A DNA stretch of 50,613 bases from Verrucomicrobiales bacterium (GCA_031266335.1 JAISBF010000088.1:1-50613); one strand, 5' to 3'. Shown: positions 20,097 through 38,727, numbered from the stretch's first letter. The notes: generated by a model from the sequence alone, not told the origin. A program made the numbers and translations.

Positions 20097-20135
20097 ACAA
20101 CTGACCTTGTAAAATTACGGCGTCAAGCTCCGGAC

Positions 20136-20342: not shown

Positions 20343-20426
20343 TCCAAAAAAATTTTAAAAAGATGTTGCAATTTTCTCGTCATCCAACTAATATCCACAT
20401 TGGAAATTCAACCAAAGGAAAATGAT

Positions 20427-20675: not shown

Positions 20676-20694
20676 TTTTATCCAAAATATGAAT

Positions 20695-20727
20695 AAACAG
20701 AAGCATGGGCATCTCATGCTTCTGTTT
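20695..20727 (+). terminator. Rho-independent-type hairpin
   Basis: AAACAGAAGCATG-ggcatct-CATGCTTCTGTTT forms a perfect 13-bp stem with a 7-nt loop, followed by GTTT. Confidence 0.6.
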
Positions 20728-20988
20728 GTTTCATAAATATGCCCCCTCATTATAGTATGGAGGCGGAACATTTCTACTGCTGTATAGAGCAAGACTACTT
20801 ATTCTGCCCAATTCCACCCAAGGTGATAACTGATATAATAGAGTAGAGTTGTTGGCTGACAATTAAATCGGTTGTTAGGTTGCCATCCCCACAGTGACGA
20901 GAAAGTGATTAGTTTTACCAATTGTGGAATTAGAACTATAAGTATTACCGAATAATTAATGCAATAAAATAACCAAACAAGATTAATT

Positions 20989-21948
20989 ATGAAATGTAGA
21001 ATCATTGAATTAATAATAGCAATGGGATTGTTATCATCAAACATACTTTTGGCACAAAGACATAATTCTTTGACATCAGAATTAGATACTTTGAAAAAAA
21101 ATGCCCAAGCTTTACAAAGTTATTATTATAATGCGAAAGTGCATAAAATCGTAATTCCGGGACTTGAGAGCGAAATAAACGAAAATAATCCATTATGCAA
21201 ACAAACAATTGATATTACCGTTGGTGTTTTTAATAATAAACACTTGGTTGAAGTGAAGTGTCATGATGGTAATCGTAAATTATTTGATTCAATAATAAGC
21301 TGTTATGATGGGGAATTATGGTCTTGGCTTGACGGCCGCTTGCATGTTATGTTTTTTTCAAAAAAAAGACACAGACGACTTTATTCGCTGGCCGGAACCC
21401 ATCCGTTAGGTTTAATTTATGGTTTTATTAATTTTAAAAATGATGGTGGTAATATGGTCTGTACTTATCCACTGGATATAATGAATGATGTCGGATGGGA
21501 ACAATTGTCCAGGGAAGCAGCATTAATTGCACTTGATGGCAAACAATTTACTTTTTCTGTCACGGGCACCGATGATTATACCCAAAAACAATATTTTGAC
21601 GAAATAACGGTAGATAAGGAAACTTACCTTCCCATTATGTTAAAACGCTATAATTTTGAATCAAATATCAAGGGCGCATTGACATACCAACATGAGATAA
21701 AAGAGATTGGCAGACTCAAATTAGGTTCTCAGACTGTTTATTACCCAAAAACACTGGAAATTGCCCGTTATCATCCGCCCGCTGTTGCGGGACAGGAACG
21801 AGGTAATCTTTATTACACCATTTCAACCGTTGTTACCGACATCAAAAATATTAATAAAGACGACGACATGGACTTTTCCATAGACCCAACTTTGGCCAAG
21901 GCGATTGTGGATGTGGATAGGGATGTGTGGATCGATATACCAAAATAA
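20989..21948 (+). CDS. Hypothetical secreted/anchored protein (low-GC island)
   Basis: 319-aa ORF with hydrophobic N-terminus MKCRIIELIIAMGLLSSNILLA and AT-rich codon usage unlike the flanking genome. No family was recognised. Confidence 0.65.
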   Translation: MKCRIIELIIAMGLLSSNILLAQRHNSLTSELDTLKKNAQALQSYYYNAKVHKIVIPGLESEINENNPLCKQTIDITVGVFNNKHLVEVKCHDGNRKLFDSIISCYDGELWSWLDGRLHVMFFSKKRHRRLYSLAGTHPLGLIYGFINFKNDGGNMVCTYPLDIMNDVGWEQLSREAALIALDGKQFTFSVTGTDDYTQKQYFDEITVDKETYLPIMLKRYNFESNIKGALTYQHEIKEIGRLKLGSQTVYYPKTLEIARYHPPAVAGQERGNLYYTISTVVTDIKNINKDDDMDFSIDPTLAKAIVDVDRDVWIDIPK

Positions 21949-21952
21949 GATT

Positions 21953-22966
21953 ATGCGACTTTTATTTACCATATTAAGTCTCGTCATTTGTTTTTGTATT
22001 GCTGCCTGTAAGGAAAAGCGCCAAATTCATTCGATTAACATTAAGGCTGGAGGTCAATACCATTCGGCTGCCGGTGACATATTTCAGTTTGGAGAGATTA
22101 ATCGAATATTAATTTTAAAGAATAATGAAGATAATGAGATTACTTTCAATAAAATTGAAACGACCTGTGGTTGTAGTAATCTAGCATTGGAAAATGAGAC
22201 AATTTTACCGAATGCAACGACCGCGTTACACCTCACCTTAAAGGCGCAAAATAGGAAAGGTCCTTTTTACGTAATTGCCACATTGTTTTATAAAATAAAA
22301 AATGAAACGGAAGTTAAAAATTTTAGAATCCGTTTTGATGCAAATGCCGTTACGCCAGCGGATGTCGAACCAGATCGTATAGATCTTCCAGATTTGGATA
22401 TTGCTGGTATTCCCCAGGTTATTAAGGTGGATGTTCGGCGTAATAAGACGCCCATTCAATGGGATGATATTTTAATTTCAACAAAAAAGCTCCCCGCAGT
22501 CATCAGTAGGATAGATAATGATCATTACGAGATAAATATAAAGGTTGATCCCGGTAAGGTAAATATAGTTGGCTCTGTCAGCGATGAATTGGAAATTTTA
22601 TTAACCAGAGCGGATGAGGTAAAACCAATTGTTATTACGGTTCCAATACAAGGGAAAATTATATCTAAGCACTCAGTTAAGCCCGCAAGTATTTTTATGG
22701 GATCGGTAAAGGTTGGCGATATTAAAAAAGGGAGTGTAAATATTAAATTGGCTAATCAAACAAAACTTGTGAAAGCAGAAATTGAAGATATGGACAAGGC
22801 CAGTGTTGCCGTGAAAGGTGGATCTAATAATGAATATATCATTGAGTATGCATGTGTTATACCTGAATCTAAGACTGGGTATTTAAGGGGAAATTTGCAA
22901 CTTATGTTAAATGATAATGAAAAACAGTATTACTTGGTTATTCCAATAGTTGGTTACTTACAATAA
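21953..22966 (+). CDS. DUF1573-like lipoprotein (low-GC island)
   Basis: The ATG at 21953 gives MRLLFTILSLVICFCIAAC (lipobox). TTCGCSNL...LPNATTALHLTL matches the CGC-containing DUF1573 Ig-like repeat, and a second similar repeat follows. Confidence 0.7.
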   Translation: MRLLFTILSLVICFCIAACKEKRQIHSINIKAGGQYHSAAGDIFQFGEINRILILKNNEDNEITFNKIETTCGCSNLALENETILPNATTALHLTLKAQNRKGPFYVIATLFYKIKNETEVKNFRIRFDANAVTPADVEPDRIDLPDLDIAGIPQVIKVDVRRNKTPIQWDDILISTKKLPAVISRIDNDHYEINIKVDPGKVNIVGSVSDELEILLTRADEVKPIVITVPIQGKIISKHSVKPASIFMGSVKVGDIKKGSVNIKLANQTKLVKAEIEDMDKASVAVKGGSNNEYIIEYACVIPESKTGYLRGNLQLMLNDNEKQYYLVIPIVGYLQ

Positions 22967-22989
22967 TAATAATAAAAGGTAAAAAAGGT

Positions 22990-23088
22990 CTCATAAAAGA
23001 AATTAGTCTTTATTTTTGACAGATGGGCAGAATTGAAAGCAGCGAACGAAAAGAATTTGTCAAAAAATGCAGACTAACCCCTTTCTCA
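22990..23088 (+). repeat. Palindromic ~100-bp repeat, copy 1
   Basis: ...TAGTCTTTATTTTTGACAGATGGGCAGAATTGAAAGCAGCGAACGAAAAGAATTTGTCAAAAAATGCAGACTAACCCCTTT. The arms are inverted repeats around a conserved ~36-nt centre. Confidence 0.8.
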
Positions 23089-23215
23089 CTTTCTACAGTT
23101 GAAAAATAATCGGCAAGTAATCGTTAATCACGGGGCCTGAGATTAACGCCCCGCCGCCGGCTGGCAAGGCTTATTTGCATTGTCAGCGGCCGTGCCGCAC
23201 GCATAGGATTGGCCC

Positions 23216-24106
23216 ATGCCGCTGACGGTCACCTCCGAACTCAACCGGCGCGTCCGCGCTCTGGCGGAGCCGGATAATTATTGGCGGGGCCGGACGCCTG
23301 CCGAGCCGTTGCGTCCCGTGAACATCCTCGTGTTCCGCCGTCGCAGCGTGGCGGAGTTGCGCGCCGGCGCTGATTTTCCGCACCAACACCACCGCCACGT
23401 GCTCATCACCGCCCTGCGCGGCGCGGGCCGGGTCGGGGTGGATACGCGCGTCTGGCCGGTGCGCGAAGGGCAGAGTTTGCTGGTGCTGCCGTTCCAAACG
23501 CACTGGCACGAGCTTCCGGCGGCGGAAAAAATCCTGTGGCTGTTCGTCACCTTCGAGCACGGGCGGGACGCGCGGCTGGAGCGATTGCGCGACCGCGGGC
23601 AGGTCAGTCTCACCGTCAGCGAGCGGGATTTGCCGCGCGATTTTATCCGCGCGTGGTCAGCGTCAGCGGAGACACTCGGATTGCGCCTGTCGCTGTGGTT
23701 GCACGCGCTCACGCAAAAAATCAACCGCGCCGCGCTGCCCAACCTCGCTGTCAGTCACGCCAAAAAACCGGAGTTGGTAGCGGAAATCAACCGGCTGTTT
23801 TTTGCCGACCGCGAAAAAACGCTGCGGCTGGCGCATCTCGCCAAGCGACTGCGTGTCTCGGTCAGCCTGTTGCGCGCCGAATTTCACCGCGCGACCGGAA
23901 AATCAGTCGGCAAATATGTGCGCGAGTTGAAATTGCAATACGGCTGCGAATTGCTCCACGACATGGCGTGGCCAGTGGGCGAAGTCGCCACCCGCTGCGG
24001 CTACGACTCGGTGTTTTCCTTCAGCCGCGCGTTTCACCGGCGTTATCAGATGTCGCCGAGCCGTTACCGGCAAATGGTCGGCGCGCGCGCAACCGCGGGC
24101 CGCTGA
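23216..24106 (+). CDS. AraC-family transcriptional regulator (cupin sensor + HTH)
   Basis: The C-terminal AraC HTH signature is LAKRLRVSVSLLRAEFHRATGKSVGKYVRELKLQYGCELL...GYDSVFSFSRAFHRRYQMSPSRYR. Confidence 0.9.
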   Translation: MPLTVTSELNRRVRALAEPDNYWRGRTPAEPLRPVNILVFRRRSVAELRAGADFPHQHHRHVLITALRGAGRVGVDTRVWPVREGQSLLVLPFQTHWHELPAAEKILWLFVTFEHGRDARLERLRDRGQVSLTVSERDLPRDFIRAWSASAETLGLRLSLWLHALTQKINRAALPNLAVSHAKKPELVAEINRLFFADREKTLRLAHLAKRLRVSVSLLRAEFHRATGKSVGKYVRELKLQYGCELLHDMAWPVGEVATRCGYDSVFSFSRAFHRRYQMSPSRYRQMVGARATAGR

Positions 24107-24141
24107 CCGTGATAATAGCTCGCGCCCAGCCGCCAAGTTTT

Positions 24142-24924
24142 TTAAAAGCGCTGCCAGTCCGGTTTGTTCTCATGCACCCAGCGGTAATATTCACGCCGCC
24201 GCAAGTCACCGGCGGCGGCTTGGTCGAGGAACAGCACCGCGCGCGGATGCAGTTGCAGCGCGGACGCCGGCACTGACGCGGTGACGGGGCCTTCGACGGC
24301 GGCGGCAACGGCGCGGGCCTTCGCCGGGCCAAACGCGAACAGCAGCACCGTGCGCGCGTCCATGATGGTGCCGACGCCCATGGTGATGACGTGGCGCGGC
24401 TGCTCGCCGGGGTCGGTGAAATGGCGCGCGTTGTCGCGCAGCGTCTCCATCGTCAGCGTCTTGACGCGGGTGCGCGAGGCCAGCGAAGAACTCGGCTCGT
24501 TGAAACCGATGTGACCGTCAGCGCCAATGCCTAACACTTGCAAATCAATGCCCCCGGCGGCGGCGATTTGTTCCTCGTACCGGCGGCACGCGGCGGGCAC
24601 GTCGGCGGCAAGGCCGTCGGGCAGATGGGCGCGCGCGGCGCTGAGGTTGACCTGGTGGAAAAAATTTTCGCGCATATAAAAATGATAGGAAGCCGGGTGC
24701 GCCGGCGCGAGGCCGAGATACTCGTCCAGATTGAACGTGGTCACGCGGCTGAAATCCAAGCCCTCCTCGCGGTGCCGGCGGATGAGTTCGCGGTAGAGCG
24801 TCAGCGGCGTGCTGCCGGTGGCAAGCCCCAACACGGCGGCGGGCTTGCGCCGGATGAGCGCGTCAATCACTGCGGCACCGGCCAGACTGGCGGCGTCAGC
24901 GTCGGGTTGAATGATGATTTCCAT
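24142..24924 (-). CDS. nagB: Glucosamine-6-phosphate deaminase
   Basis: 260 aa with LGLATGSTPLTLY, FNLDEYLGL and GIGADGHIGFNEPSSSL, which are canonical NagB motifs. Confidence 0.92.
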   Translation of the reverse strand: MEIIIQPDADAASLAGAAVIDALIRRKPAAVLGLATGSTPLTLYRELIRRHREEGLDFSRVTTFNLDEYLGLAPAHPASYHFYMRENFFHQVNLSAARAHLPDGLAADVPAACRRYEEQIAAAGGIDLQVLGIGADGHIGFNEPSSSLASRTRVKTLTMETLRDNARHFTDPGEQPRHVITMGVGTIMDARTVLLFAFGPAKARAVAAAVEGPVTASVPASALQLHPRAVLFLDQAAAGDLRRREYYRWVHENKPDWQRF

Positions 24925-24926
24925 AA

Positions 24927-25799
24927 TCAGCGTCCGAGTTGGCGGTTTAATTTTTCAACGACCTCGCGTTTGAAACGTTCAATCGCGCTGACGGTAAAAT
25001 CCGCGACATCCAGCGTCGAATTCACCATCAGCGGCGTCAAATTCATGGCGAATGCCGCCGCCTCGCAACGGTCGGTGGCGCGGCTGTCGAGAAACGTCGC
25101 GTTGGCGCGGCGGCGGCCGCTGACGGCAAGGTCGTAGCGTTTGCCGGCGGCGATTTGCGAAGTGAAGACACCGCTCAGCGCGTCGGCCAGCGCCCCGCTG
25201 CCGGTGAGGTCGTGCACAATTTTTTCGTCATCGGGCAACCAATCCAGCCCGCGCCACACTTCGCAGCCGTACACCGTCTCCGGCTGACCGTCAGCGGGCA
25301 GCGCGCGCAAGGCCGCCAGCAGCGCGACCAGCACGGCGAGATGCGTTTCGTGTTTGTCAGCGGGGTTGTGCGTGTACACCACGCGCGGGCGGGTCGCCGT
25401 CAAAATTTCGCGCAAATCGGCGGCCAACTCGCCGTTGACCCCGCCGCTGATGGTGACGCTGGGAAAATCCAGTTGTGCCATCAACGCGAACTCACCGAGA
25501 CTGGCCGCGCGGTTTTGTTCCTCGCGCCGCGTCGCCCGCAATTTCCCGCCGCTGACGGTGGCGAATTTTCCACCGCGCGGGCTGCCCGCGCCATCGGTGC
25601 AAACCACGCCGGCAAACCAGCGGTCATCGCGTTGAAAACATTCCGCGATGCCGTGCAGCGCCATGAACTCCAAATCGTCTTGATGCGCGCCGACGCCGAG
25701 ATGCGTGACGCGCGCGCACGCCTCGGCGAGCGGCTTGCCGTCAGGCACGAACACGCTGGCGGCGGGGCGGCTGAGTTTCACGACAACCTCCGGCGGCAA
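24927..25799 (-). CDS. PIG-L/LmbE-family N-acetylglucosaminyl deacetylase
   Basis: VGAHQDDLEF (AHPDDxE-type zinc motif) and HNPADKHETH. It lies 3 nt from nagB. Confidence 0.85.
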   Translation of the reverse strand: MPPEVVVKLSRPAASVFVPDGKPLAEACARVTHLGVGAHQDDLEFMALHGIAECFQRDDRWFAGVVCTDGAGSPRGGKFATVSGGKLRATRREEQNRAASLGEFALMAQLDFPSVTISGGVNGELAADLREILTATRPRVVYTHNPADKHETHLAVLVALLAALRALPADGQPETVYGCEVWRGLDWLPDDEKIVHDLTGSGALADALSGVFTSQIAAGKRYDLAVSGRRRANATFLDSRATDRCEAAAFAMNLTPLMVNSTLDVADFTVSAIERFKREVVEKLNRQLGR

Positions 25800-27541
25800 T
25801 CCCGCGCCGCCGCCGTCAATACCTCGCGGATGCGGAAATACTCTGACGGCTTGTTACGTCGGCGCCACACGGCGGCGAGGCGGCGCTCCAGTTCCAGTAA
25901 TCGCGCGGTCATGCGAGTCACTGTCAACGGCTTGATTTTCGTCCGTCCGGCGCGGGCGAGTCGGAAAATAAAATATTCCTCCATGACTTGCAGCCCTAGC
26001 AAACCGGTCTCGATTTCCGCCACCGTCAGCGGGTCGGTGGGACGGGATTTTTTCAACACCGTCAGCGCCCGCCGCGACAACCGCCGGATTCTTGTCAACG
26101 CGGTGGCGTGCTCCCGCGCGGGATGAATGAACCCGGCCTGACCGTGTTGCACGGGCAGACCGTCAGCGTCGAACCAGCCTTCGTCAAAGTCCCGCGAGCG
26201 CGGCTGGAACAAGTGGCACAACGCCACCCAGCCGGCGCGCCGTGCGCTGACGGTGTCGCTTAACAAGCCTAGCAATTTCCCACCCAGGTCGCCGAGCACG
26301 AGCCGCGAGGCGGCGGCGTTGAAGCGGCTCATCGTCAGCGTCGCCGACCGCGCGTGCCACGCGGCGGACGCGCCGAGCACGAGGCCGGGCACGGATGGGC
26401 CTAGCGTGTTGATATGCCCAAAGTCACCCCAATCCGTGTTGAGCAGACCGCGCGCGCCGAGCCGCTGACCGTGACGGGCGAAGCGTGTGATGTTGCGGTG
26501 CGCGGCGGGATAATCCGGCAGCCAGTTGTTCCACCCGCGCACGCCGGTGCAAAGGTAAAACGGCCGGCCCGACTTGGCGAACAGCGGCGCGCGGCGCAAA
26601 TGCGGGCGCGGGCCGTAATCCCATTCCAGCATCACAGCGTCAGCGGGCAATTCGCTCATCAACAGCGGGTCAATCACATCGCCCCAGAACAACGGCGTCG
26701 CGCCGCAGTCGCTGACGATGGCCATGATTTTTTTCAGAAAGTCCAAATACAACCGCCTCACACCGATCCGCTCCGCCAGCGCACGGTTGCGGCCTTTGCC
26801 GAGGTCGAAGGTTTCGTCGGCGCAGATGTTGAAAAATATTGAGCGGAACAGCGGACGCACCTCGCGGATGATTTCTTCTACCAATTTGATAGAGCGCGGG
26901 TTTTGGCAATCCAGCGTGTAATGCTGCATCCGGTCGTGAAAGTTGAATGGGTCGCCGCTGACGTTCACCTCCAGTTCGTTCAACTCAGGAAACTCGCGGA
27001 CCATCCACGTGTAAAAATGTCCGAACGTGCTGAACGACGGCACCAAGTCAATGTGCCGCGCGGCGCAGTAATCATCCAGCGCGCGGATTTCAGCCGCCGT
27101 CAGCGGGTCGGCGTCACGCCAGACGGCGGGATATTTTTTGAACGCGTAAGTGTGCTCGATGTACAATTCGAGGTGGTTGAGCTTATATTGCGCGCAAGTG
27201 TCGGCGAGCGCGAGCAGCGTCTTGAGCGTCGGCACCTTGCCGCGCGACACGTCGTGATAAAAACCACGCACCGGAAAATCCGGCCAGTCGCTGACCGTGA
27301 GGCGCGGGCGGGCGGCGGGAAACTGCCGGTCAATTTGCCGCAACGTCTGCCGCGCGTAGCACACCCCGGCCTCGTCATTGGCAAAGATTTGCGTGTTAGC
27401 GCCGCTGATGGTAAGCCGGTACGCGCCGGCCTCGCGCCGCGCGACGAGCTTGTCGCCAACGTTGACCGTGACGCGGCGCGAGTCGCAAAAACCGCGCTGA
27501 CGGTGAACCCTTTTCGGCGGCGGCAACAGGTCAAGTTTCAT
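25778..27541 (-). CDS. GH20-like beta-N-acetylhexosaminidase
   Basis: RGFYHDVSRGKVPTLKTLLALADTCAQYKLNHLELYIEH and ICADETFDLG match GH20 catalytic-domain patterns. It overlaps the downstream deacetylase gene by 22 nt. Confidence 0.8.
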   Translation of the reverse strand: MKLDLLPPPKRVHRQRGFCDSRRVTVNVGDKLVARREAGAYRLTISGANTQIFANDEAGVCYARQTLRQIDRQFPAARPRLTVSDWPDFPVRGFYHDVSRGKVPTLKTLLALADTCAQYKLNHLELYIEHTYAFKKYPAVWRDADPLTAAEIRALDDYCAARHIDLVPSFSTFGHFYTWMVREFPELNELEVNVSGDPFNFHDRMQHYTLDCQNPRSIKLVEEIIREVRPLFRSIFFNICADETFDLGKGRNRALAERIGVRRLYLDFLKKIMAIVSDCGATPLFWGDVIDPLLMSELPADAVMLEWDYGPRPHLRRAPLFAKSGRPFYLCTGVRGWNNWLPDYPAAHRNITRFARHGQRLGARGLLNTDWGDFGHINTLGPSVPGLVLGASAAWHARSATLTMSRFNAAASRLVLGDLGGKLLGLLSDTVSARRAGWVALCHLFQPRSRDFDEGWFDADGLPVQHGQAGFIHPAREHATALTRIRRLSRRALTVLKKSRPTDPLTVAEIETGLLGLQVMEEYFIFRLARAGRTKIKPLTVTRMTARLLELERRLAAVWRRRNKPSEYFRIREVLTAAARDCRRRLS

Positions 27542-27586
27542 AAAATGGATTTATTCCCCGCTGATAATTAGTCAAAATCACCAAAT

Positions 27587-28789
27587 TCATCCGCTGGCCG
27601 TGAGGCCGAGTTGATTCCATAACGGGCACAAATCCACCACGCGGCCACCATCAGCGGCCTCGTCAATGGCGAACGCGACGGCGCACGCGCGCAGCGCCTC
27701 ATCAATGCCGGCCAGCGGCGGCAGGCCGCGCGTGAGCGTCAGCGCCAGACCGCGCGCCAACTCGTCATCGCCGCCGCCGTGACCGCCAGCGGCCTCGCCG
27801 GCGTAGTCAATTTCCTCGACGTGCCGCGTGTGGGCAATGCGCGCCAGTTCGACGCGACCGGTGGCGAGATTGGCGCGTAGCGTGCCTTCCGTACCGCACC
27901 AATAAAAGCGCCGTTCGGGCAAGCCGGTGTTGCAGTTGGTGTGAAAAGTCGCCCGCGCGCCACCGTCGTATTCGAGAATGGCGACTTGGTTGTCAAAAAT
28001 ATCCGCGCCGCCGGTGAACGGGTTGACTTGCCGCGGACCGCGCCAGGTTTGGTATGCCGCGCGTCCATTGTCGTCCGGCCCGATGCGCGCGATGTGCCGC
28101 TCGTTGGCGGGGACAAAAAAATCGCGCCCGCCGAAACTGGCCACTCGCCGCGGCAACTTGCCGGTGAACCAGTTGGCGAGGTCGAGGTCGTGGCAGCATT
28201 TTTCCAAAATGTGCGAGCCGGCCAGCGCGCGCTGACGCCGCCAGTTGCCGAAAATATAACCGCCATGGTTGAAATTAAGCGTTTCATTGAACTCGAACGA
28301 CACGAGGTCACCGACAGCGCCGGCGTCGAGCAGTTCCTTGATTTTGCGATAAATGGGCGTGTAACGCAGCACCAAACCGAAGGCGAAAATTCTGCCGCTG
28401 GCGGTGACCGCGTCGCGCACGCGCAGACCATCGGGTAAATTGGTGGCGAGCGGTTTTTCGCAGAAAACATGTAAGCCGGCGCGCAAGGCACTAACAGCTT
28501 GGTCGGCATGGTGACAGTTGGGAGTGCCGATGAACACCCAGTCGAGACCGGGCGTGGCGATGAGTTCACGGTCGCTGCCGCTGACAGTGACCGCCGCGCC
28601 GAATTGTTCCCGCGCGAGGCTGACCGCGCCGGGGTCGGGATCATACACAGCGACAACTTTGATTTGGCCGCGACTTTCCCGCAACAAATTTTTGACAACC
28701 GTCCGCAACCGGTCGCCGACGCCAATTAAACCGATGCTCACAGGTGGGCACATGGAAATGTTATAATTCACCATCAGCGCGTCGTCCAT
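27587..28789 (-). CDS. Gfo/Idh/MocA-family NAD(P)-dependent oxidoreductase
   Basis: The N-terminal Rossmann segment is IGLIGVGDRLRTVV...VVAVYDP, with EKP (FCEKPLA) and a dimerisation domain. An alternative start is at 28753. Confidence 0.85.
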   Translation of the reverse strand: MDDALMVNYNISMCPPVSIGLIGVGDRLRTVVKNLLRESRGQIKVVAVYDPDPGAVSLAREQFGAAVTVSGSDRELIATPGLDWVFIGTPNCHHADQAVSALRAGLHVFCEKPLATNLPDGLRVRDAVTASGRIFAFGLVLRYTPIYRKIKELLDAGAVGDLVSFEFNETLNFNHGGYIFGNWRRQRALAGSHILEKCCHDLDLANWFTGKLPRRVASFGGRDFFVPANERHIARIGPDDNGRAAYQTWRGPRQVNPFTGGADIFDNQVAILEYDGGARATFHTNCNTGLPERRFYWCGTEGTLRANLATGRVELARIAHTRHVEEIDYAGEAAGGHGGGDDELARGLALTLTRGLPPLAGIDEALRACAVAFAIDEAADGGRVVDLCPLWNQLGLTASG

Positions 28790-28845
28790 GTCCGATGTGA
28801 TAAAAATTTTAACCGAAATGATATTTGCTGCTTTGCAGATTGCAC

Positions 28846-28940
28846 GTAAAAAGGTTAGTCTTCATTTCTTGACAGATGAGCAGAATTGAATGAAGCGAAT
28901 GAAAAGAATTTTTCAAGAAGTGAGGATTGCCTATTTTTAC
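28846..28940 (+). repeat. Palindromic ~100-bp repeat, copy 2
   Basis: GTAAAAAGGTTAGTCTTCATTTCTTGACAGATGAGCAGAATTGAATGAAGCGAATGAAAAGAATTTTTCAAGAAGTGAGGATTGCCTATTTTTAC. Confidence 0.8.
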
Positions 28941-29079
28941 TTTTACTCGCGGGGAATAAAATTTTTGGGCAGTCGCTGAAGCGCGAGACACGGGCAAGAT
29001 TTTCCGTGCCACATTCCGCGTTCACCATCAGCAGTAAAGTTTTCTTGATAGTGTTCTCAAATTTGAGAGTATATAAAAT

Positions 29080-29808
29080 ATGAAGTCAACTGTGGCGGAA
29101 ATCAGGCGGCGGTTTGACGGCGAGGTTGAGCGGTTTGCCAATCTGGAGACCGGGCAGGTGGCCACGGTTGACGCGCGACTGTCCTTGGAGTTGATTACGG
29201 AAGCGGCGGCGCGCTTGGTGCCGGACGCCGGGAATTTGCTGGATGTCGGTTGCGGCGCCGGCAACTATACGCTGATGATGTTGCGAAGATTGCCCGCGTT
29301 AAATTGCGCGTTGCTGGATTTGAGCGAGCCGATGTTGGCGCGGGCGGCGGCGCGGGTTTTTCAGCAAACGAAAAAGACAGCGGAGATGTTTCAGGGGGAC
29401 GTGCGGGAAGTGGCGTTACGGGAAAATCATTACGACATTATTTTGGCGGGTGCGGTGTTGCATCATTTGCGGGACGACGCGGATTGGGAAGGAGTGTTTG
29501 GCAAACTTTACCGCCTGCTCCGGCCTGGCGGCTGCCTGATGATTGCGGACTTGGTGGCGCAGGACCACGCCGCGCTGACCGAGGTCAGCTGGCGGCGATA
29601 CGCCAGTTATCTTGAGGGTCTCGGCGGGTCGGAATATTGCCGAAAAGTACTTGATTATATCGCCAGAGAAGATTCGCCGAGATCGGTCACGTATCAACTG
29701 GAGTTGATGAAAAAGGTTGGGTTCGGGAGCGTGGAGATTTTGCACAAGAACTTGTGCTTCGCGGCGTTCGGCGGGGTGAAGTCGCGGCGGACGGAAGGCG
29801 GGCGCTGA
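29080..29808 (+). CDS. Class I SAM-dependent methyltransferase
   Basis: Motif I LLDVGCGAGNYTL, post-I LLDLSEPML, and motif IV-like LRPGGCLMIADL. Confidence 0.85.
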   Translation: MKSTVAEIRRRFDGEVERFANLETGQVATVDARLSLELITEAAARLVPDAGNLLDVGCGAGNYTLMMLRRLPALNCALLDLSEPMLARAAARVFQQTKKTAEMFQGDVREVALRENHYDIILAGAVLHHLRDDADWEGVFGKLYRLLRPGGCLMIADLVAQDHAALTEVSWRRYASYLEGLGGSEYCRKVLDYIAREDSPRSVTYQLELMKKVGFGSVEILHKNLCFAAFGGVKSRRTEGGR

Positions 29809-29850
29809 CAGTCATGGGCTGTTCCGACGTGGTAAAAGGGGTAGCGGCTT

Positions 29851-29945
29851 GGAAAGGGGGCAGTCGTCATTTCTTGACAGATGGGCAGAATTGAAAGAAG
29901 CGAATAAAAAGGATTTGTCAAAAAATGAAGACTGACCCCTTTTCC
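29851..29945 (+). repeat. Palindromic ~100-bp repeat, copy 3 (best-preserved arms)
   Basis: GGAAAGGGGGCAGTCGTCATTTCTTGACA-[36 nt]-TGTCAAAAAATGAAGACTGACCCCTTTTCC. The ~30-bp arms are complementary with few mismatches. Confidence 0.85.
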
Positions 29946-29972
29946 CCCTTTTTTGGAGGATAGTCTTTAATT

Positions 29973-30227
29973 ATGACAATAATAGCTTATATGTTAGGAT
30001 TATTTCTTGGTTTAGGATTAACCACAGAAATAAATAGGACTTTGTTCGGTATGGGCACGGATGGATCTATGTTTATGTGTCATGTACTGGGTTGTTTCGT
30101 TTCCTGTTGTTTATTTCTTTTTTGCTATAAAAAGATTATAAATATTAATTATAAATATTTAATTTCTCTCGGTTTTGGCTTTTTTGCTCTTATGGAATTG
30201 GTTAGGTTTTTTGACGGCAACCACTAA
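29973..30227 (+). CDS. Small hydrophobic (2-3 TM) protein, low GC
   Basis: GGAGGA lies 12 nt upstream of the ATG. 84 aa with hydrophobic segments. AT-rich codons unlike the host genome. Confidence 0.45.
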   Translation: MTIIAYMLGLFLGLGLTTEINRTLFGMGTDGSMFMCHVLGCFVSCCLFLFCYKKIININYKYLISLGFGFFALMELVRFFDGNH

Positions 30228-30242
30228 AAGTAAAATGGGGCA

Positions 30243-30340
30243 GTAAAAGAGGGCAGTCTTCATTTCTTGACAGATGAGCAGAATTGAATGAAGCGAATAA
30301 AAAGAATTTATCAAAAAACGAAGATTGACCCCTTTCTCCC
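30243..30340 (+). repeat. Palindromic ~100-bp repeat, copy 4
   Basis: GTAAAAGAGGGCAGTCTTCATTTCTTGACAGATGAGCAGAATTGAATGAAGCGAATAAAAAGAATTTATCAAAAAACGAAGATTGACCCCTTTCTCC. Confidence 0.8.
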
Positions 30341-30382
30341 CTTTCTATCGGCGTCAGCGGCTTGGTGAATCGTCCCTACGCC

Positions 30383-31711
30383 CTATTGTCCCAAGGTGCC
30401 AGTCTTTTCAACCGGAGCGGGTTGGCCTTTGCTGAGGGCTGACAGCCAGGCGGCGGTCCGCTGATAGTAGGGGGAGTGCGAATTGTTGAAAGGCCGATGA
30501 TCAGCGTCCGGCATCACCACCAGTTCCTTGGCGCCCCTGAGCTGGTTGAAGGCGCTGAAGACCCCGGACGGCGGAGAGGTGGAGTCGAGCAAGCCCATGC
30601 CGACCAGCGTTGGGCAACGGACGCGGGCGGCGAAGTTGACGCCGTCAAAATAGCGCGCGGTTTCCAGAACTTTGGCCGGATCCTTGCCTTCGGCGTGCCT
30701 GGCCCAGCCGGGCCAGCCGGGGTTTCTGCCCGCCAGGGCGCCGGTATGGTCGCAACCGGCGGGGACCAGGATGAGGACGGCGGTGATTTTGGGGTGCAGC
30801 GCCGCCGTCGCCAGGGCTTGCCAACCCCCTTGGCTGGCGCCGGTGACGACCAGCGTGCGGCCATCCCAGTCGGGGCGGTTGGAGAGGTATTCCGCGGCGC
30901 GGTAACAGGCGAGGAACATGCGCAGGAAGTAACTCTGTTCACGGTCATCGTTGCCGATGGAGGTGTAGGCCTTAAGCTCGTTTTGCCCCAGCGCGTCATA
31001 AAATTCCTGCGCGTTGTCAATCGGCAGGTCGTGGGCGTTGATATTCAGTACCAGCCAGCCATCGTGGGCGGGGTTAGTGGCGAATTCTTTTTTTAAGGCA
31101 TAAACGCCGGCCCATTGGACGACGAGCATGGCGGGCAGTTTGTCTCCGGTGGCCGGGCGGGCGAGCTGGCCGTAAATGTGAGTGCCGCGGATGTTATCCA
31201 GCGTAATCTTCCAGTAATCAACCCCCGCTTTTCCGCTCTCTTTCCTTTCCAACACCGGATGCTCCGGCATGGCGTTCAACTCGGCGATTTTGGATGCCCA
31301 AAAGGCGTCGAAGTCATTCGGGGCGGGCGAGGAGGGCATCAACTGATCGGGAGTGAAAGCCGCTCCGGCAAGAGTTTGGAGCGTTTTTTTACCGTCCATG
31401 GGGGCGCTGATTTCGGCCAGCACGGTGCCGGGTTCGTTGAGGGTTGCTGCAATGGTCGCCGGTCCGGCCTCGAAGTTTAGAGTGCCTTGGCCGATGACTT
31501 GCGCATTACCCTTTTTTAGCACATAGGTGCCGCTCTGAACGGTATGCTGCGGATCGTCCGTGACCGCTACATGCCAGACAATTTTCTGGCCCGGAGCGGC
31601 AATGCCGCTTGGATTCTCGGCGCTGACCGTGAGTGCTGGATCAGCGATGGCCAGAAGAGGGGCACAAAAAAGCGCCAAGAGAATACCTTTAAGAAAGGAC
31701 GGCAAGCTCAT
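30383..31711 (-). CDS. Secreted acetyl-xylan-esterase/cephalosporin-C-deacetylase-like (CE7-type) alpha/beta hydrolase
   Basis: GASQGG nucleophile elbow (GxSQG as in CE7/AXE1). The signal peptide MSLPSFLKGILLALFCAPLLAIA follows from the ATG at 31711; the ORF extends to a GTG at 31729. Confidence 0.8.
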   Translation of the reverse strand: MSLPSFLKGILLALFCAPLLAIADPALTVSAENPSGIAAPGQKIVWHVAVTDDPQHTVQSGTYVLKKGNAQVIGQGTLNFEAGPATIAATLNEPGTVLAEISAPMDGKKTLQTLAGAAFTPDQLMPSSPAPNDFDAFWASKIAELNAMPEHPVLERKESGKAGVDYWKITLDNIRGTHIYGQLARPATGDKLPAMLVVQWAGVYALKKEFATNPAHDGWLVLNINAHDLPIDNAQEFYDALGQNELKAYTSIGNDDREQSYFLRMFLACYRAAEYLSNRPDWDGRTLVVTGASQGGWQALATAALHPKITAVLILVPAGCDHTGALAGRNPGWPGWARHAEGKDPAKVLETARYFDGVNFAARVRCPTLVGMGLLDSTSPPSGVFSAFNQLRGAKELVVMPDADHRPFNNSHSPYYQRTAAWLSALSKGQPAPVEKTGTLGQ

Positions 31712-31763
31712 GATTCCAGAGTTAACCACGGTTTGAACGGAAATATCAAGCTGCTAATGAATA

Positions 31764-31859
31764 GGAAAAAAAGGGTCAGTCTTCATTTCTTGACAGATGG
31801 GCAGAATTAAAAGAGGCGAACGAAAAAAATTTGTCAAAAATGAAAATTGCCCCCTTTTT
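31764..31859 (+). repeat. Palindromic ~100-bp repeat, copy 5
   Basis: GGAAAAAAAGGGTCAGTCTTCATTTCTTGACAGATGGGCAGAATTAAAAGAGGCGAACGAAAAAAATTTGTCAAAAATGAAAATTGCCCCCTTTTT. Confidence 0.8.
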
Positions 31860-31915
31860 GTCGGACATATCCCCTTTGCTTTTGTTCGCGAGATGGCTAT
31901 AGCATACAAAACATT

Positions 31916-32953
31916 ATGAAATTCCCGTCTCATGATAAATCCGTGTCATCCGGCATATCCCGCCGCAAGGCCATTCAAATGTTCGGACTCGGTATGATCG
32001 CCTCCACCGCTTTTGGCGGTCGTCTGAATGCAGCCGGGAGCGCGTCCACCACGAAGCGTCCGCCCGCAAGAGAGGGCAATGCGGAGACTTGGCGTTTCAT
32101 GATCGGGAACATCGAAGCCATTTCCGTTTGCGACGGTTTTGGCACCTTCAGCCCCGCCCATACGGTCTGGCCGAAGGACGCCACCGAAAGCGGCATTGCC
32201 AGGCAACTCGAGGCCGCCTTCCTTCCCGCTGGCAAGGCAATTATGTCTTACAATGTGCTGGTATTGCGTACCGGGAAAGAAGTCATCCTCGTTGATACCG
32301 GATGCGGCGCGGTCGCCGATACCGACAGCGGCCGGCTCATCGCCAACCTCGCGACCGTAAACCTCCGTCCGCAGGACATCACGGCTGTGGTCATCACCCA
32401 TGGACACAGCGATCACATCGGCGGGTTGCTGGACGCCGCCGGAGCACCGACATTCACGAACGCCCGGCTCTTCATTCGGAAGAAGGAACTGGACTACTGG
32501 TTCTCCGAAAACCCGGACACCTCCACGATGATAGTAGATGAAACCGCGCAGAAATGGACGGTCGGGAGCGCGCGAAAATACCTCGGGCCGCTCAAAGATG
32601 CCTTCCTGCTGGTCGAGCCTGGACAGCGGATCCTCGACTGCATTGAAATTGTGGATACCGCCGGGCACACACCCGGTCATGCCTCGCTCCTTATCCGATC
32701 GGGAGAGGAAACGCTCTTTCACATGGCGGACGTTACTCATCACAGCATCCTCTCGTTCGCCAACCCGGAATGGAGACTCAGCTTCGACTCGATTCCGGAA
32801 CTGGCGGCAACCACCCGTCGAAAGATTCTCACCTGGCTTTCCAGTGAGCGTACCCGCGCCCTCAGCTATCATGCGCCTTTCCCCGGAGTCGCCCACATTG
32901 CTGCCGATGGGAGAGGCTTTCGCTGGGTGCCGGAGCATTGGTCGATCGTGTAG
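31916..32953 (+). CDS. MBL-fold metallo-hydrolase with Tat-type signal
   Basis: ITHGHSDHIGG (HxHxDH). The N-terminal SRRKAIQMFGLGMIASTAFG is twin-arginine-like. The ATG at 31916 is in frame with the track ORF 31847. Confidence 0.85.
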   Translation: MKFPSHDKSVSSGISRRKAIQMFGLGMIASTAFGGRLNAAGSASTTKRPPAREGNAETWRFMIGNIEAISVCDGFGTFSPAHTVWPKDATESGIARQLEAAFLPAGKAIMSYNVLVLRTGKEVILVDTGCGAVADTDSGRLIANLATVNLRPQDITAVVITHGHSDHIGGLLDAAGAPTFTNARLFIRKKELDYWFSENPDTSTMIVDETAQKWTVGSARKYLGPLKDAFLLVEPGQRILDCIEIVDTAGHTPGHASLLIRSGEETLFHMADVTHHSILSFANPEWRLSFDSIPELAATTRRKILTWLSSERTRALSYHAPFPGVAHIAADGRGFRWVPEHWSIV

Positions 32954-32966
32954 TAAAGATTCACCA

Positions 32967-33068
32967 AAAGGGGTAAAAAGGTATTAGTCTTCATTTTTTG
33001 ACAGATGAACAGAACTGAAAGAAGTAAATGAAAGGAATCAGTCAAAAATGAAGACTGACTCCTTTCCC
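32967..33068 (+). repeat. Palindromic ~100-bp repeat, copy 6
   Basis: AAAAGGGGTAAAAAGGTATTAGTCTTCATTTTTTGACAGATGAACAGAACTGAAAGAAGTAAATGAAAGGAATCAGTCAAAAATGAAGACTGACTCCTTTCCC. Confidence 0.8.
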
Positions 33069-33077
33069 AAAATAATC

Positions 33078-33107
33078 TGTCAAGAAATGAAGGCTGCCTC
33101 TTTTTAC
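33078..33107 (-). repeat. Isolated inverted arm of the palindromic repeat
   Basis: TGTCAAGAAATGAAGGCTGCCTCTTTTTAC is the reverse complement of the left-arm consensus GTAAAAGAGGGCAGTCTTCATTTCTTGACA. Confidence 0.7.
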
Positions 33108-33113
33108 ATTAAT

Positions 33114-33401
33114 ATGTTCAAAAAACATGGCCCACAAAAAGTTCAACACATCATTGATAATTATATAGTACAAACTCGTGACCGATATACAGTTGAATAC
33201 CTAAAGGATAACAAAAAAGTAACAATTGGAGTTGATTTTGGATTTATTATATATGTTTTCCAAGGTTCAATGCGTGGATGGTTAAATCTAAAAGAATATG
33301 CAATGGGACAAGACGAACAAATTATTGTGTTAGGGAGAATTGTGGCAGGCTTGAATGCGATGGGATGCGAAGTTGAAGTATGCTCTGGGAACGCACCTTA
33401 A
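33114..33401 (+). CDS. Small hypothetical protein (95 aa), low GC
   Basis: The ORF begins after the repeat arm (MFKKHGPQKV...) and has AT-rich codon usage. It is bracketed by inverted repeat arms at 33078-33107 and 33421-33448. Confidence 0.4.
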   Translation: MFKKHGPQKVQHIIDNYIVQTRDRYTVEYLKDNKKVTIGVDFGFIIYVFQGSMRGWLNLKEYAMGQDEQIIVLGRIVAGLNAMGCEVEVCSGNAP

Positions 33402-33420
33402 ATTTGTACAGCAACCAACT

Positions 33421-33490
33421 GTAAAAGAGGTCTCTTCATTTCTTGACATCATGCTTATTCAAATTATGAGCTAAAAAGCGAATAGAATGG
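33421..33490 (+). repeat. Palindromic repeat, copy 7 (left arm intact, remainder degenerate)
   Basis: GTAAAAGAGGTCTCTTCATTTCTTGACA is followed by diverged sequence that retains AAAAGCGAATA from the central region. Confidence 0.6.
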
Positions 33491-33598
33491 CTGCTCTGTA
33501 TCACCGTCAGCGGCAACAAACATCCGCAACTATGTTGGATTGCTGCAATTATCAATATTCAATAATCAATAAAAAATTTCGCCACCGTCAGCGATTAT

Positions 33599-33775
33599 TC
33601 AACCCACCATATGCGCAGCCAGGCGCCGCACGAACGGGCTGTTTTTCAAACGCCGCGCGAGATAGGCGTGAAATTCATCGAAACTCATGTTGGAAGTTTC
33701 GGCATAAATTTTCGCTTGAAGGTCACGCTTCATGGCCAAGCAATCAAAGTTTTTTTCTTTTTTAATCGCTTTCAT
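33599..33775 (-). CDS. Small 58-aa protein translationally coupled to the PIN gene (possible antitoxin/partner)
   Basis: Hand-translated as MKAIKKEKNFDCLAMKRDLQAKIYAETSNMSFDEFHAYLARRLKNSPFVRRLAAHMVG. It is not in the supplied track (<60 aa). Its ATG overlaps the PIN stop by 14 nt. Confidence 0.45.
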   Translation of the reverse strand: MKAIKKEKNFDCLAMKRDLQAKIYAETSNMSFDEFHAYLARRLKNSPFVRRLAAHMVG

Positions 33776-34226
33776 ATTTCACCAGTTCTTTCGGATTTCT
33801 GATTTCCAACATAGCATAGCCCATTTTCAAATTCACGCCATTATAGCCTTTGATGCGGTCTAAATTGACTATGTGCTTGAAATTCCAACTCGCCAACACA
33901 TCTGCCTTGTACAAAGTGGCAAGGGCGATGTGATAGCAATCTTCCAAACTGGTTTTGCCCACGACTTTTTCGGCAATATATGCGTTGGCAAGTCTGCGGG
34001 CTTCCGGCGTTAGCGTCACATATTCAAAACAATCATCGGCATAATTTTGCAATAAATTTTTCACTTGTGCCGGCGCGTCCTGTAATTCGTTATCTAAAAT
34101 ATCCGAGATCACAAAAACGATTTCTTTATTTTCAAGCCGCTGAAATAATTTTTGCGTGGCTTCTGCAAACTCGTCATCGAAAAAACCGCCCACCACCGAA
34201 GTGTCAATGTAAATGCGTTGTTTCAT
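33762..34226 (-). CDS. PIN-domain (VapC-like) ribonuclease toxin
   Basis: MKQRIYIDTSVVGG (first acidic residue), then DCYHIALATLYKADVLASWNFKH, which is typical of a PIN C-terminus. The ATG at 34226 lies inside the longer track ORF. Confidence 0.75.
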   Translation of the reverse strand: MKQRIYIDTSVVGGFFDDEFAEATQKLFQRLENKEIVFVISDILDNELQDAPAQVKNLLQNYADDCFEYVTLTPEARRLANAYIAEKVVGKTSLEDCYHIALATLYKADVLASWNFKHIVNLDRIKGYNGVNLKMGYAMLEIRNPKELVKYESD

Positions 34227-34632
34227 AAAATATTCAGCGGATAAAATTGGTGCGTTACGCGACTGGTTCGCCCACAGGTAACGGGACGGTATCCTTGGTG
34301 GCGGAAGTAAGCGGCATCCCTCTGACCGTGTCATCGAGCGAGAAAGTCAACGATTTGAGGGATATTTCCATAGTGAATCACCGTTAATTTAGCCTGCTTC
34401 TCGAACTGATAAAAGAAAAAATTAGCCAGCCTGTTATCCTCACGCAAAGCCCAATGTAGAGCGATGGGTCAATATCAGCAAGCCGATTTCCCTGCGCCGC
34501 GCCCGCTCCTGCAAGGTCGAATTCTCAGTTATACGCCAAAATTCCATGCTGCTGATTTCGCGTGCCAAGGGGTCAAAAATTGTGATTGGCAGTGAGGCGA
34601 TGATTTGCTTTATATTGCTGCAAATATTAAAT

Positions 34633-38673: not shown

Positions 38674-38727
38674 AGTACTTGATTTATATTGAGGCAGGGC
38701 TTGAAAAAAATAAAACCAGGGAAGGAA

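Follow-up and report, generated by a model that had tools for sequence, protein, structure and literature searches.

A repeat-bounded, strain-variable cassette array of integron- or rAID-like architecture in two Verrucomicrobiales genomes

Is a run of dissimilar genes separated by one palindromic repeat an integron cassette array, a patch of locally amplified mobile elements, or an array of another kind? The question is raised by about 14 kb of a Verrucomicrobiales chromosome, which is a patchwork of foreign genes split by one palindromic repeat of about 95 bases and lies within a 50,613-nt stretch of DNA analysed as a whole (the window). An earlier reading made from the DNA alone (the sequence-only reading) had called it an integron-like array with non-canonical sites. 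We compared the window with one Verrucomicrobiales MAG, JAISDC010000066 (the MAG), giving two genomes overall, and found that the locus is a repeat-bounded, strain-variable cassette array with an architecture like that of integrons or rAID arrays. The layout, the turnover of units and the gene repertoire of the earlier description stand; membership of the integrons or CALINs does not, as boxes, extrahelical bases and spacers were all lacking; nor was a recombinase found near the array.

Anatomy of the repeat

Six full copies of the repeat, each about 95 nt long (about 92-96), were found in the window as AT-rich palindromes, all on the + strand: R1 (22996-23088), R2 (28848-28940), whose right arm is the most degenerate among the copies, R3 (29853-29946), R4 (30245-30340), R5 (31769-31861) and R6 (32977-33068). 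An extra second right arm (33069-33106, + strand), overlooked in the earlier list of copies, abuts R6 on its 3′ side. Seven copies in the same orientation had been counted previously; the orientation is as described for the six full copies, and the one at 33421 is only a half site (R7′, 33421-33448, + strand), a single arm terminating at TTGACA. A 22-nt core pattern gave six matches in the window against none expected from 100 shuffles, and a profile search found no further copies in the other 40 kb of the window, in agreement with the first reading. Counting both genomes, 12 of 12 full copies are co-oriented, at least eight of them at positionally distinct sites; were orientation random, the probability of such agreement would be about 0.008.

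The repeat consensus is TAAAAGGGGTCAGTCTTCATTTCTTGACA, a 36-nt centre GATGGGCAGAATTGAAAGAAGCGAATGAAAAGAATT, and TGTCAAAAAATGAAGACTGACCCCTTTCT; arms around a conserved centre of about this length had been noticed before. The arms are 27 nt long and align collinearly with no indels, 87% of cells are paired, and the sole recurrent irregularity is a C.A mismatch at columns 24/73. The resulting 27-bp stem has an A-run at one border and a T-run at the other (AAAAGGGG...CCCCTTTCT), and conservation is equally high in the centre and in the arms. The G + C content of the repeats is 0.32-0.44 compared with about 0.65 for the genome. The element is non-coding, with no conserved ORF within it. Hairpins were predicted for every copy. 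Compensated changes were not found in the stem and the proportion of paired cells was not above that of shuffles; folding of the two strands as ssDNA, a check proposed with the sequence-only reading, gave similar energies with no consistent difference in stability and no attC-type asymmetry. Thus nothing in the stem or in the strand comparison shows selection for the folded form.

Genes between the repeats

The left edge of the variable region is a window-specific, low-GC (0.37) segment (20097..22995, + strand) encoding a 319-aa signal-peptide protein and a 353-aa DUF1573 lipoprotein. No repeat was found at its left border, and its counterpart in the MAG is a PIN/PhdYeFM toxin-antitoxin pair. 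An IS630-like remnant had been suspected at 20136-20358, for which no support was found. Between R1 and R2 lies a GlcNAc utilisation module of 5.76 kb (23089..28847), with AraC on the + strand and NagB, a PIG-L deacetylase, GH20 and Gfo/Idh on the - strand; its GC is 0.63 and it is 95.5% identical to the MAG.

Five smaller units and the right end follow. The methyltransferase (SAM) cassette (28941..29852; ORF 29080-29808, + strand) is not present in the MAG array, and the next cassette (29947..30244; ORF 29973-30227, + strand) has a GC of 0.31 and carries a hydrophobic 84-aa ORF. An AXE1/CE7 esterase cassette (30341..31768; ORF 30383-31711, - strand) and an MBL-fold hydrolase cassette (31862..32976; ORF 31916-32953, + strand) are 92.6% and 90.7% identical to the MAG, respectively. 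The hydrolase has a twin-arginine leader (SRRKAI) and is closest by sequence to AidB-type lactonases, and its best homologue beyond its own species is just 45% identical. The fifth cassette (33107..33420, + strand; GC 0.35) holds a 117-aa ORF for which no family match was found; at this place the MAG instead encodes, on the opposite strand, a GNAT acetyltransferase. On its right the variable region ends (33449..34334, - strand) with a 58-aa ORF (33599-33775) and a PIN-type ORF (33762-34334), and homology to the MAG backbone restarts at 34298. The earlier gene list was thus borne out for the GlcNAc module and the five cassettes; for the PIN module placed after the array, both ORFs are present, and the PIN match is weak (E 1.8e-4, under the Pfam cut-off). 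Gene orientation in the array is mixed, and the GC of the units spans 0.29-0.60, with several units at 56-60%. The genes around the array show heavy exchange with Bacteroidota.

Composition and origin of the units

A 7-mer core that is hyper-abundant in this genome has a density of 3-4 per kb in the backbone and the GlcNAc module (4.0 per kb in the latter). The module therefore belongs to the native backbone, and its interval, given as 5.6 kb in the first reading, is no longer to be counted as a cassette. In the methyltransferase, esterase and MBL cassettes, by contrast, the core was found once in 3.4 kb versus about 11 expected (0.7 per kb in the esterase cassette and 0 in the MBL cassette); the low-GC units have none, and in most MAG-only units it is rare or missing. 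The small units, poor in the native motif, thus look foreign.

The methyltransferase ORF, here joined to an AT-rich leader and the repeat, is 86% nucleotide-identical to copies in two other Verrucomicrobiales contigs, with homology that spans the ATG to about 18 nt beyond the stop codon and enters the start of cbiX. The cassette derives from a chromosomal MTase-cbiX locus, from which it was cut at the start codon and, downstream of the stop, after about 18 nt. No cassette protein has a match at 90% identity in a set of about 15 billion proteins, which gives no sign of a circulating cassette pool. Across the two arrays the repertoire comprises three toxin-antitoxin pairs, GNAT, an orphan CdiI immunity gene, the MBL lactonase-like hydrolase, the methyltransferase and small unknown ORFs.

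Comparison with the sister MAG

The MAG carries an array at the same locus, with the same repeat and flanked by the same two giant glycosidase genes; in the GlcNAc module and these flanking genes, identity to the window is 95.5-96%. The gene content between the repeats is partly different, with some units missing, some extra and one at another position. The methyltransferase unit, the 84-aa unit (in its place), the 117-aa unit and the low-GC left segment are found only in the window, and CdiI_3, MNT/HepT and GNAT units together with PIN/Phd and PIN165 modules only in the MAG; the 84/93-aa unit does not have the same place in both arrays, and its identity is just 80%. Comparison of related genomes had been named beforehand as a test of the cassette reading, an identical and immobile gene order being what would count against it; two genomes about 95% identical instead differ in repeat-bounded blocks. 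A full, partial or remnant repeat was found at 16 of the 20 boundaries of compositionally distinct segments in both arrays, and none inside a multi-gene module.

The repeats themselves differ between the two genomes. R1 is orthologous to MAG copy Rb in its centre and right arm, with a diverged left arm (6 differences in 29 nt); the MAG equivalent of R4 is its last 11 nt only (GACCCCTTTCT); and an inverted right arm occupies the place homologous to R7′. R6 and its positional counterpart Rf differ at 23 of 94 positions (24%), beside a gene that is 91% identical. R5 is a hybrid of two MAG copies, Rd and Re, which in the MAG lie on either side of an additional MNT/HepT toxin-antitoxin cassette: its left arm shows no difference from Rd, and the sequence on its right is homologous to that beside Re. 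This makes R5 the exact product of recombination between Rd and Re, or else the substrate for insertion of one unit with one repeat. Partial copies terminate at varied alignment columns (about 30, 53, 57, 62 and 85), and the positions of putative crossovers vary between junctions. No strain polymorphism made of the repeat alone was found between window and MAG.

The shared cassettes have a dN/dS of 0.15-0.18. Their synonymous divergence (0.22 for the esterase and 0.16 for the MBL hydrolase) is higher than that of the pooled backbone (0.087), which speaks for the cassette reading, although it could also reflect amelioration of foreign DNA and not a separate history. The longest exact stretch common to two copies within one genome is 45 nt, well below the k of 119 suggested by the k119_ name of the MAG contig, which supports the assembly of that contig; window positions 23096-28886 were reproduced exactly by a second assembly.

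Distribution of the repeat and search for a recombinase

Genome collections were scanned with one 22-mer from the centre motif, which matches three of the seven MAG copies. With this 22-mer, no match was found on the other contigs of the MAG, all of which were scanned, nor in Bacteroidales genomes, and none but one chance match in the rest of 185,579 species genomes. The repeat is thus known from two genomes only, and the scatter throughout the genome that would mark an ordinary repeat family was not seen in the MAG, where only the array contig matched.

The large ORFs of the 50.6-kb window gave no integrase, recombinase or transposase domain, as the sequence-only reading had noted for integrases, and neither did the called genes in 21 kb of the MAG contig; the same search gave no intI with attI beside the array. 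In either genome, no recombinase was found within 15-20 kb of the array. A Y1 transposase (RAYT) domain was not found in the window.

Explanations of the array

Repeats at unit boundaries, content differing by strain, a hybrid repeat and foreign composition together suggest that the repeats act as joints for gene turnover. The shared direction of the full copies, their confinement to this locus (22-mer scan) and the trimmed methyltransferase cassette point the same way. We tentatively favour, as a real possibility short of a probable one, the explanation that 20097-34298 is a strain-variable insertion zone round the native GlcNAc operon, in which units are exchanged repeat by repeat. Foreign units, either single genes or toxin-antitoxin pairs, would lie on both sides of the operon, with one copy or remnant of a lineage-specific palindrome of about 95 bp at each unit boundary, and would be removed, added or exchanged by recombination between repeats. 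The array may have been assembled by a cassette-plus-site mechanism analogous to that of integrons or the rAID arrays of Bacteroidales: a unit with one repeat, either circular or linear, would recombine with a resident repeat, catalysed by a putative recombinase whose gene lies elsewhere in the genome. At a genomic GC of 65%, an AT-rich palindrome would melt or extrude more easily than any other place, as would suit a structured recombination site. The array is probably now also decaying through homologous recombination and deletion. Against this explanation, every strain difference can be derived by deletions alone from a richer common ancestor (the PIN190/Rg′ region needs just two), and a single fixed cleavage point fits the varied ends of partial copies and the varied crossovers less well than homologous or illegitimate recombination does. 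The lack of a recombinase in the DNA searched, the uncompensated stem changes, the mixed gene orientation and the occurrence in two genomes only also count against it.

A bolder form of the proposal, which we consider unlikely, is that the array belongs to an undescribed cassette-capture system of Verrucomicrobia with palindromes of about 95 bp, a 36-nt centre and an unlinked, perhaps non-IntI, recombinase. If cassette capture is true, host chromosomal genes could become cassettes with ORF-level precision, as the cut ends of the methyltransferase unit suggest.

It is doubtful, though worth serious weight, that the repeat is instead a Correia-like MITE with 27-bp terminal inverted repeats, amplified locally in an AT-rich horizontally acquired island, the content differences being secondary and due to homologous recombination between copies and independent gene transfer. 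Such an origin agrees with the build of the repeat (about 95 bp, 27-bp terminal inverted repeats, AT-rich, no coding capacity), and dead transposon copies typically show such uncompensated arm decay and such truncated or inverted fragments. Correia elements duplicate TA, and in most copies here TA was seen by eye at the left end, ahead of the A-run and GGGG; however, only 3-5 of the 12 have TA past the right end and the left TA could belong to the palindrome, leaving no consistent target-site duplication. Some bacterial MITEs bunch, for example SPRITE (PMC10969869), but neither the strict co-orientation of the full copies, nor their place at nearly every unit boundary and never within modules, nor a centre conserved as much as the arms is explained in this way. 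The lack of copies outside the locus in the MAG (22-mer scan), together with the lack of a consistent target duplication, makes an ordinary dispersed MITE or REP family unlikely. From the locally amplified MITE/REP alternative raised earlier, the MITE build remains, without the dispersed family or the REP/RAYT features.

It is also unlikely that there is no dedicated machinery and that the repeats are portable homology in a decaying relic, for instance of tandemly accreted integrative elements or of an imported island, reshaped by RecA recombination, transformation between sister strains and palindrome-stimulated deletions. Crossovers and truncations at varied positions, stretches of up to 44-45 identical nt between some copies, enough for homologous recombination, and the recombinase-free surroundings all agree with a relic, and differential loss accounts for all strain differences. 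A relic does not explain, however, why genes of GC 0.29-0.60 and diverse origin are each flanked by the same repeat, or why the cut in the methyltransferase fell on its start codon, with an AT-rich leader and the repeat attached; and the 24% difference of R6 and Rf beside genes 9% different suggests that whole repeats were swapped with neighbouring units.

It is improbable that the repeat serves mainly in expression, as a cis-acting element (bidirectional terminator or insulator, RNase III target, or small RNA) copied between units because of its use there. The repeat is always intergenic, its predicted hairpins have a 27-bp stem with A-run and T-run borders, and Correia elements affect transcripts in this way (PMC10969869); but the stem has no covariation, Rfam gave no family match except a spurious plant miRNA hairpin, and a terminator scan did not flag the repeat, whose loop of 36 nt and stem rich in AT are unusual in terminators. 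Moreover, the orientation of the repeat is fixed whatever the gene direction, and an expression element leaves the cassette turnover unexplained.

It is scarcely credible that the locus is a canonical integron array (CALIN) in which true attC sites are recombined by an IntI integrase from elsewhere, and this reading is already largely refuted. The attC sites are imperfect palindromes of about 57-141 bp with R″/R′ boxes, extrahelical bases and an unpaired spacer. In size and clustering the repeats agree, with six full copies of about 95 bp in 10.1 kb, and the single-gene units and toxin-antitoxin cassettes also fit. However, among RYYYAAC...GTTRRRY pairs at 20000-34600 on both strands none coincides with a repeat, as first stated, and pairs 50-150 nt apart occur only inside the 117-aa ORF; most copies are without GTT or AAC at the arm ends, and the collinear arms have neither bulged bases nor an unpaired central spacer.

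Comparison with known systems

REP sequences are 20-40 nt, GC-rich and dispersed in hundreds of copies that alternate in BIMEs, and REPINs are inverted doublets of about 100 nt forming a long hairpin (PMC2817692). The present repeat is likewise an extragenic palindrome, but it is AT-rich and confined to one locus, no RAYT gene was found in the window, and its arm alone is not a convincing hairpin; a REP/REPIN-RAYT origin is not supported. Correia elements are closer, being intergenic and about 100-150 bp long, with inverted repeats of about 26-27 bp at their ends and a non-coding, AT-rich body that has a conserved centre (PMC10969869). Size, inverted repeats, AT-rich body, conserved centre and location are shared with them; but Correia elements occur in at least 100 copies, dispersed in both orientations, whereas this repeat is found at one locus, co-oriented, always on unit boundaries, with no consistent duplication and no lone-repeat polymorphism.

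Integrons have been reported in Verrucomicrobia (PMC4889954). Like CALINs and sedentary integrons, the array has same-direction, lineage-homogeneous imperfect palindromes (about 60-140 bp) between mostly single-gene units of mixed composition, a repertoire of toxin-antitoxin, acetyltransferase and small unknown ORFs, and a content that varies by strain; an adjacent integrase may be missing in CALINs too. It differs in that the repeats have no R″/R′ boxes, AAC/GTT triplets, extrahelical bases or spacer but a continuous 27-bp stem, a conserved 36-nt centre and truncations at varied points, and in that no IntI was found and gene orientation is mixed. The array is not an integron in the strict sense, having different sites and no visible enzyme.

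The rAID-1 arrays of Bacteroidales (recombinase-associated acquired interbacterial defence) have a 5′ XerD-like recombinase, co-oriented genes and a GC of 41% or less (bioRxiv 10.1101/471110, PMC12247911). Compared by these features, the present array differs in having no recombinase, genes on both strands and units that reach 56-60% GC. What it shares with rAID-1 is an integron-like array without attC sites, short low-GC acquired genes, repetitive intergenic sequences, an orphan CdiI_3 immunity gene in the MAG array and a setting of exchange with Bacteroidota.

Repeat family in the window

Repeat searching revealed a single family, about 95 nt long, of which the window has six full copies (R1 to R6), all on the + strand and starting at 22996, 28848, 29853, 30245, 31769 and 32977. 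The sequence-only reading had listed seven co-oriented copies, none of them in the other 40 kb. The family and its common orientation were confirmed, and a profile search found no further copy in those 40 kb; but the seventh copy proved to be one arm alone of 26-28 nt, which terminates at TTGACA (half site R7′, 33421-33448). An additional right arm, missing from that list, lies directly after R6 (33069-33106). A 22-nt core pattern of the family gave six matches versus none expected from shuffled sequence. The consensus consists of a left arm, TAAAAGGGGTCAGTCTTCATTTCTTGACA, a 36-nt centre, GATGGGCAGAATTGAAAGAAGCGAATGAAAAGAATT, and a right arm, TGTCAAAAAATGAAGACTGACCCCTTTCT; both arms measure 27 nt and pair in 87% of cells. 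The G + C content of the repeats is 32-44%, versus about 65% for the genome. The gene content first assigned to the array was borne out by Pfam, and no recombinase or transposase domain was found in the large ORFs of the window.

The same locus in a sister strain

The centre motif was scanned against one genome per species (185,579 species). Besides one chance match, a 22-mer in an Arthrobacter genome, a single organism was found, the Verrucomicrobiales MAG Gx485_bin111 (contig JAISDC010000066). A 21 kb locus of this contig (L015) was set in window orientation and was 95.5-96% identical to the window in the left giant GH42-like gene, the GlcNAc module and 7.4 kb on the right, so the two are the same locus in sister strains. 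The MAG carries six full copies and one with a 16-nt internal deletion; in addition, a partial copy and a half site occur in inverted orientation, and a further copy is reduced to an 11-nt remnant. Scanning metagenomes with the arm pattern gave single-arm chance matches only, and neither a viral scan nor blastn against plasmids found the repeat; the evidence for a repeat-bounded array therefore comes from two genomes. Window 23096-28886 is reproduced without differences in a Logan assembly contig (L016), which ends inside the flank of R1 and inside R2, and the longest identical stretch between copies of one genome is 45 bases; chimeric assembly of the array is therefore unlikely.

Turnover of units at the repeats

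In the window, the GH1298 gene is followed by a low-GC segment of 2.9 kb, R1, the GlcNAc module (AraC, NagB, PIG-L, GH20 and Gfo/Idh, 23089-28847), R2, the methyltransferase, R3, an 84-aa ORF, R4, the esterase, R5, the MBL hydrolase, R6, a 117-aa ORF, the half site, a 58-aa ORF with PIN190, and the GH1375 gene. In the MAG, the order from GH1298 is a PIN/Phd pair, Ra, a 93-aa ORF, Rb, the GlcNAc module, Rc with the inverted partial copy, CdiI_3, the 11-nt remnant, the esterase, Rd, an MNT/HepT pair, Re, the MBL hydrolase, Rf, a GNAT gene, the half site, the 58-aa ORF, Rg′, then PIN165, a 260-aa ORF and a 79-aa ORF, and finally the GH1326 gene. A repeat or repeat remnant was found at 16 of the 20 borders between distinct segments, and none in the interior of multi-gene modules.

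R5 is a hybrid, with a left arm identical to that of Rd and a right flank homologous to that of Re. It is the expected product of direct-repeat recombination with loss of one unit; read in reverse, the same relationship is that expected from insertion of one unit plus one repeat. At L015 6808-6960, the full Rc is followed after 8 nt by the inverted partial copy (left arm and half centre). The partial copy directly adjoins the 3′ end of CdiI_3, a gene in reverse orientation, and the two head-to-head repeats could be the trace of an inverted unit that retained its own repeat. What the evidence supports best is recombination at a single chromosomal hot spot, marked by the repeats and involving them, through which foreign units are lost, gained or swapped.

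Native and foreign DNA

A hyper-abundant 11-mer, CGCTGACGGTG / CACCGTCAGCG, occurs 54 times in the 50.6-kb window (for example at 23170-23230 and 33505-33520) and is useful as a marker of native DNA. Both the flanks and the GlcNAc module contain 3-4 copies of its 7-mer core per kb. One copy of the core is present in the methyltransferase, esterase and MBL units combined, versus about 11 expected; the low-GC units have none, and most MAG-only units none or one. The GlcNAc module had been counted among the cassettes; given its native 7-mer density, it is instead native backbone, with a zone of foreign units to either side. Two other Verrucomicrobiales contigs (L017 and L019) are likewise rich in the 11-mer, which may serve as an uptake-signal, Chi-like or REP-like sequence.

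Synonymous divergence between the strains is 0.22 for the esterase unit and 0.16 for the MBL unit, both common to the two strains, and 0.087 for the backbone (seven genes pooled); dN/dS in the esterase/MBL analysis was 0.15-0.18. The raised divergence fits a separate history of these units, and could also reflect faster change of foreign DNA under the host mutation bias.

Individual units

The methyltransferase ORF (within 29079-29826) is 86% identical at the nucleotide level to copies in the same two contigs (L017, 2695-3425; L019, 3605-4343), both without the repeat, so that it is found in three genomic contexts on three Verrucomicrobiales contigs. Homology extends from exactly the ATG to about 18 nt beyond the stop, within the start of cbiX in L019. 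The MTase-cbiX pair is intact in L019, and in L017 cbiX is cut to a 29-aa stub. From these homology ends, the unit derives from a chromosomal MTase-cbiX locus and was joined to an AT-rich leader and a repeat. The remaining homologues, most of which belong to Bacteroidota, share about 70% identity.

The MBL-fold protein (31916-32953) carries a twin-arginine leader. Among NCBIfam families it best matches the AidB-type quorum-quenching N-acyl-homoserine lactonases (E 1.7e-36, under the family cut-off), and the Anti-Pycsar Apyc1 family is also listed in precomputed Pfam. The units comprise three toxin-antitoxin pairs, an orphan CdiI immunity gene, a GNAT, the methyltransferase, a predicted secreted AidB-like lactonase-type MBL hydrolase and small ORFs without known function. 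This repertoire fits a competition/defence island in a gut community that trades genes heavily with Bacteroidota.

Flanking features

Four paralogous giant GH42-like (Glyco_hydro_42M) genes of 1298-1376 aa flank the array, three in tandem on the left (8016-20096) and one on the right (34546-38673). A pair of paralogous esterases with SASA domains is encoded on the - strand (1912-3984 and 4116-6140). Beyond this species, the DUF4185 gene (38689-40023) has its closest relatives in Bacteroidota, with about 70% protein identity, and SusC/SusD genes were present in the one context examined (L020). This suggests acquisition from Bacteroidota even for the "backbone" glycan-degradation cluster. Because its next relatives lie in such loci, the gene was uninformative as an anchor for the locus in other species. 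At 46913-47113 a 21-bp unit, approximately CACGTGTAAAAATCGTTTTGT with an internal CACGTG palindrome, is repeated 9.6 times in tandem, just downstream of the genes for a histidine kinase (44693-46054) and a response regulator of the NtrC/Fis type (46051-46578). Near the window start there are further short 21-bp arrays (145-252 and 369-412); such arrays may be regulator-binding or iteron-like sites. A tRNA-linked island was rejected, the window having no tRNA gene. An IS630-like transposase remnant at 20136-20358, proposed from the peptide DNLSAHH...LPPGSIP, was dropped, having no Pfam match even at E <=10 and no tblastn match in plasmids.

Nature and origin of the repeats

We tentatively favour an array founded by a cassette-plus-site mechanism resembling that of integrons or of the rAID-1 arrays of Bacteroidales; its recombinase would be encoded elsewhere in the genome, and the array would by now be partly decayed. 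The rAID-1 arrays combine an XerD-like recombinase, low-GC immunity genes and repetitive intergenic motifs (10.1101/471110; PMC12247911). Several findings limit this reading. No recombinase was found in the 15-20 kb around the array in either genome; partial copies end at varied alignment columns (about 30, 53, 57, 62 and 85), and the divergence pattern places crossovers differently among positional repeat pairs. For the PIN190/Rg′ region, an ancestor with more units and two independent deletions suffice as an explanation, and all remaining strain differences are in principle likewise derivable by deletions. In a comparison with about 15 billion proteins, every cassette protein was unique at 90% identity.

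The behaviour of the repeats is unlike that of ordinary MITE or REP families with dispersed copies: every copy found lies at one locus, the full copies are co-oriented, target duplication is not consistent and no polymorphism involves the repeat alone. A Correia-like MITE amplified locally, with homologous recombination acting on its copies, is the strongest rival, though less likely than the favoured origin. Slightly less likely again is a relic island whose turnover proceeds by homology only, a reading with which the deletion route would agree and on which the array would have no founding site mechanism.

That the repeats are an expression element is improbable: the promoter/terminator scan called nothing at them. 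A small peptide in the centre (MGRIERSE) was dismissed since its frame is not kept between copies. A selected RNA or ssDNA structure was rejected; stem changes are uncompensated, with covariation not above shuffles, and both strands fold equally well. No Rfam family reached its gathering score. In E-value mode the plant precursor MIR6288 matched 29850-29945 and 32974-33068 on the - strand, at 36.6 bits against a gathering score of 74, a chance likeness of long AT-rich hairpins.

A true CALIN is the least credible reading. Canonical attC sites were rejected, R boxes being absent: no RYYYAAC...GTTRRRY pair coincides with any repeat, and the arms align without bulges or spacers. The integron-like interpretation is partly supported: it holds for the architecture and the turnover at repeats, but not for membership in integrons or a dedicated enzyme.

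Comparison with known systems

The first formation of integron cassettes is an old unsolved problem, and the methyltransferase unit offers a rare view of a chromosomal cassette source beside the finished product. Even if the mundane reading is true, the array is a clean case of an island, variable between strains and rich in competition/defence genes, that is organised by a repeat family; its host is an uncultured gut symbiont. The textbook example of a system that stores and reshuffles single-gene cassettes is the integron, and the rAID arrays of Bacteroidales show that integron-like architectures are possible with other recombinases. A third, sequence-unrelated type of site in another phylum would suggest that site-plus-cassette arrays are recurrent and were not invented once.
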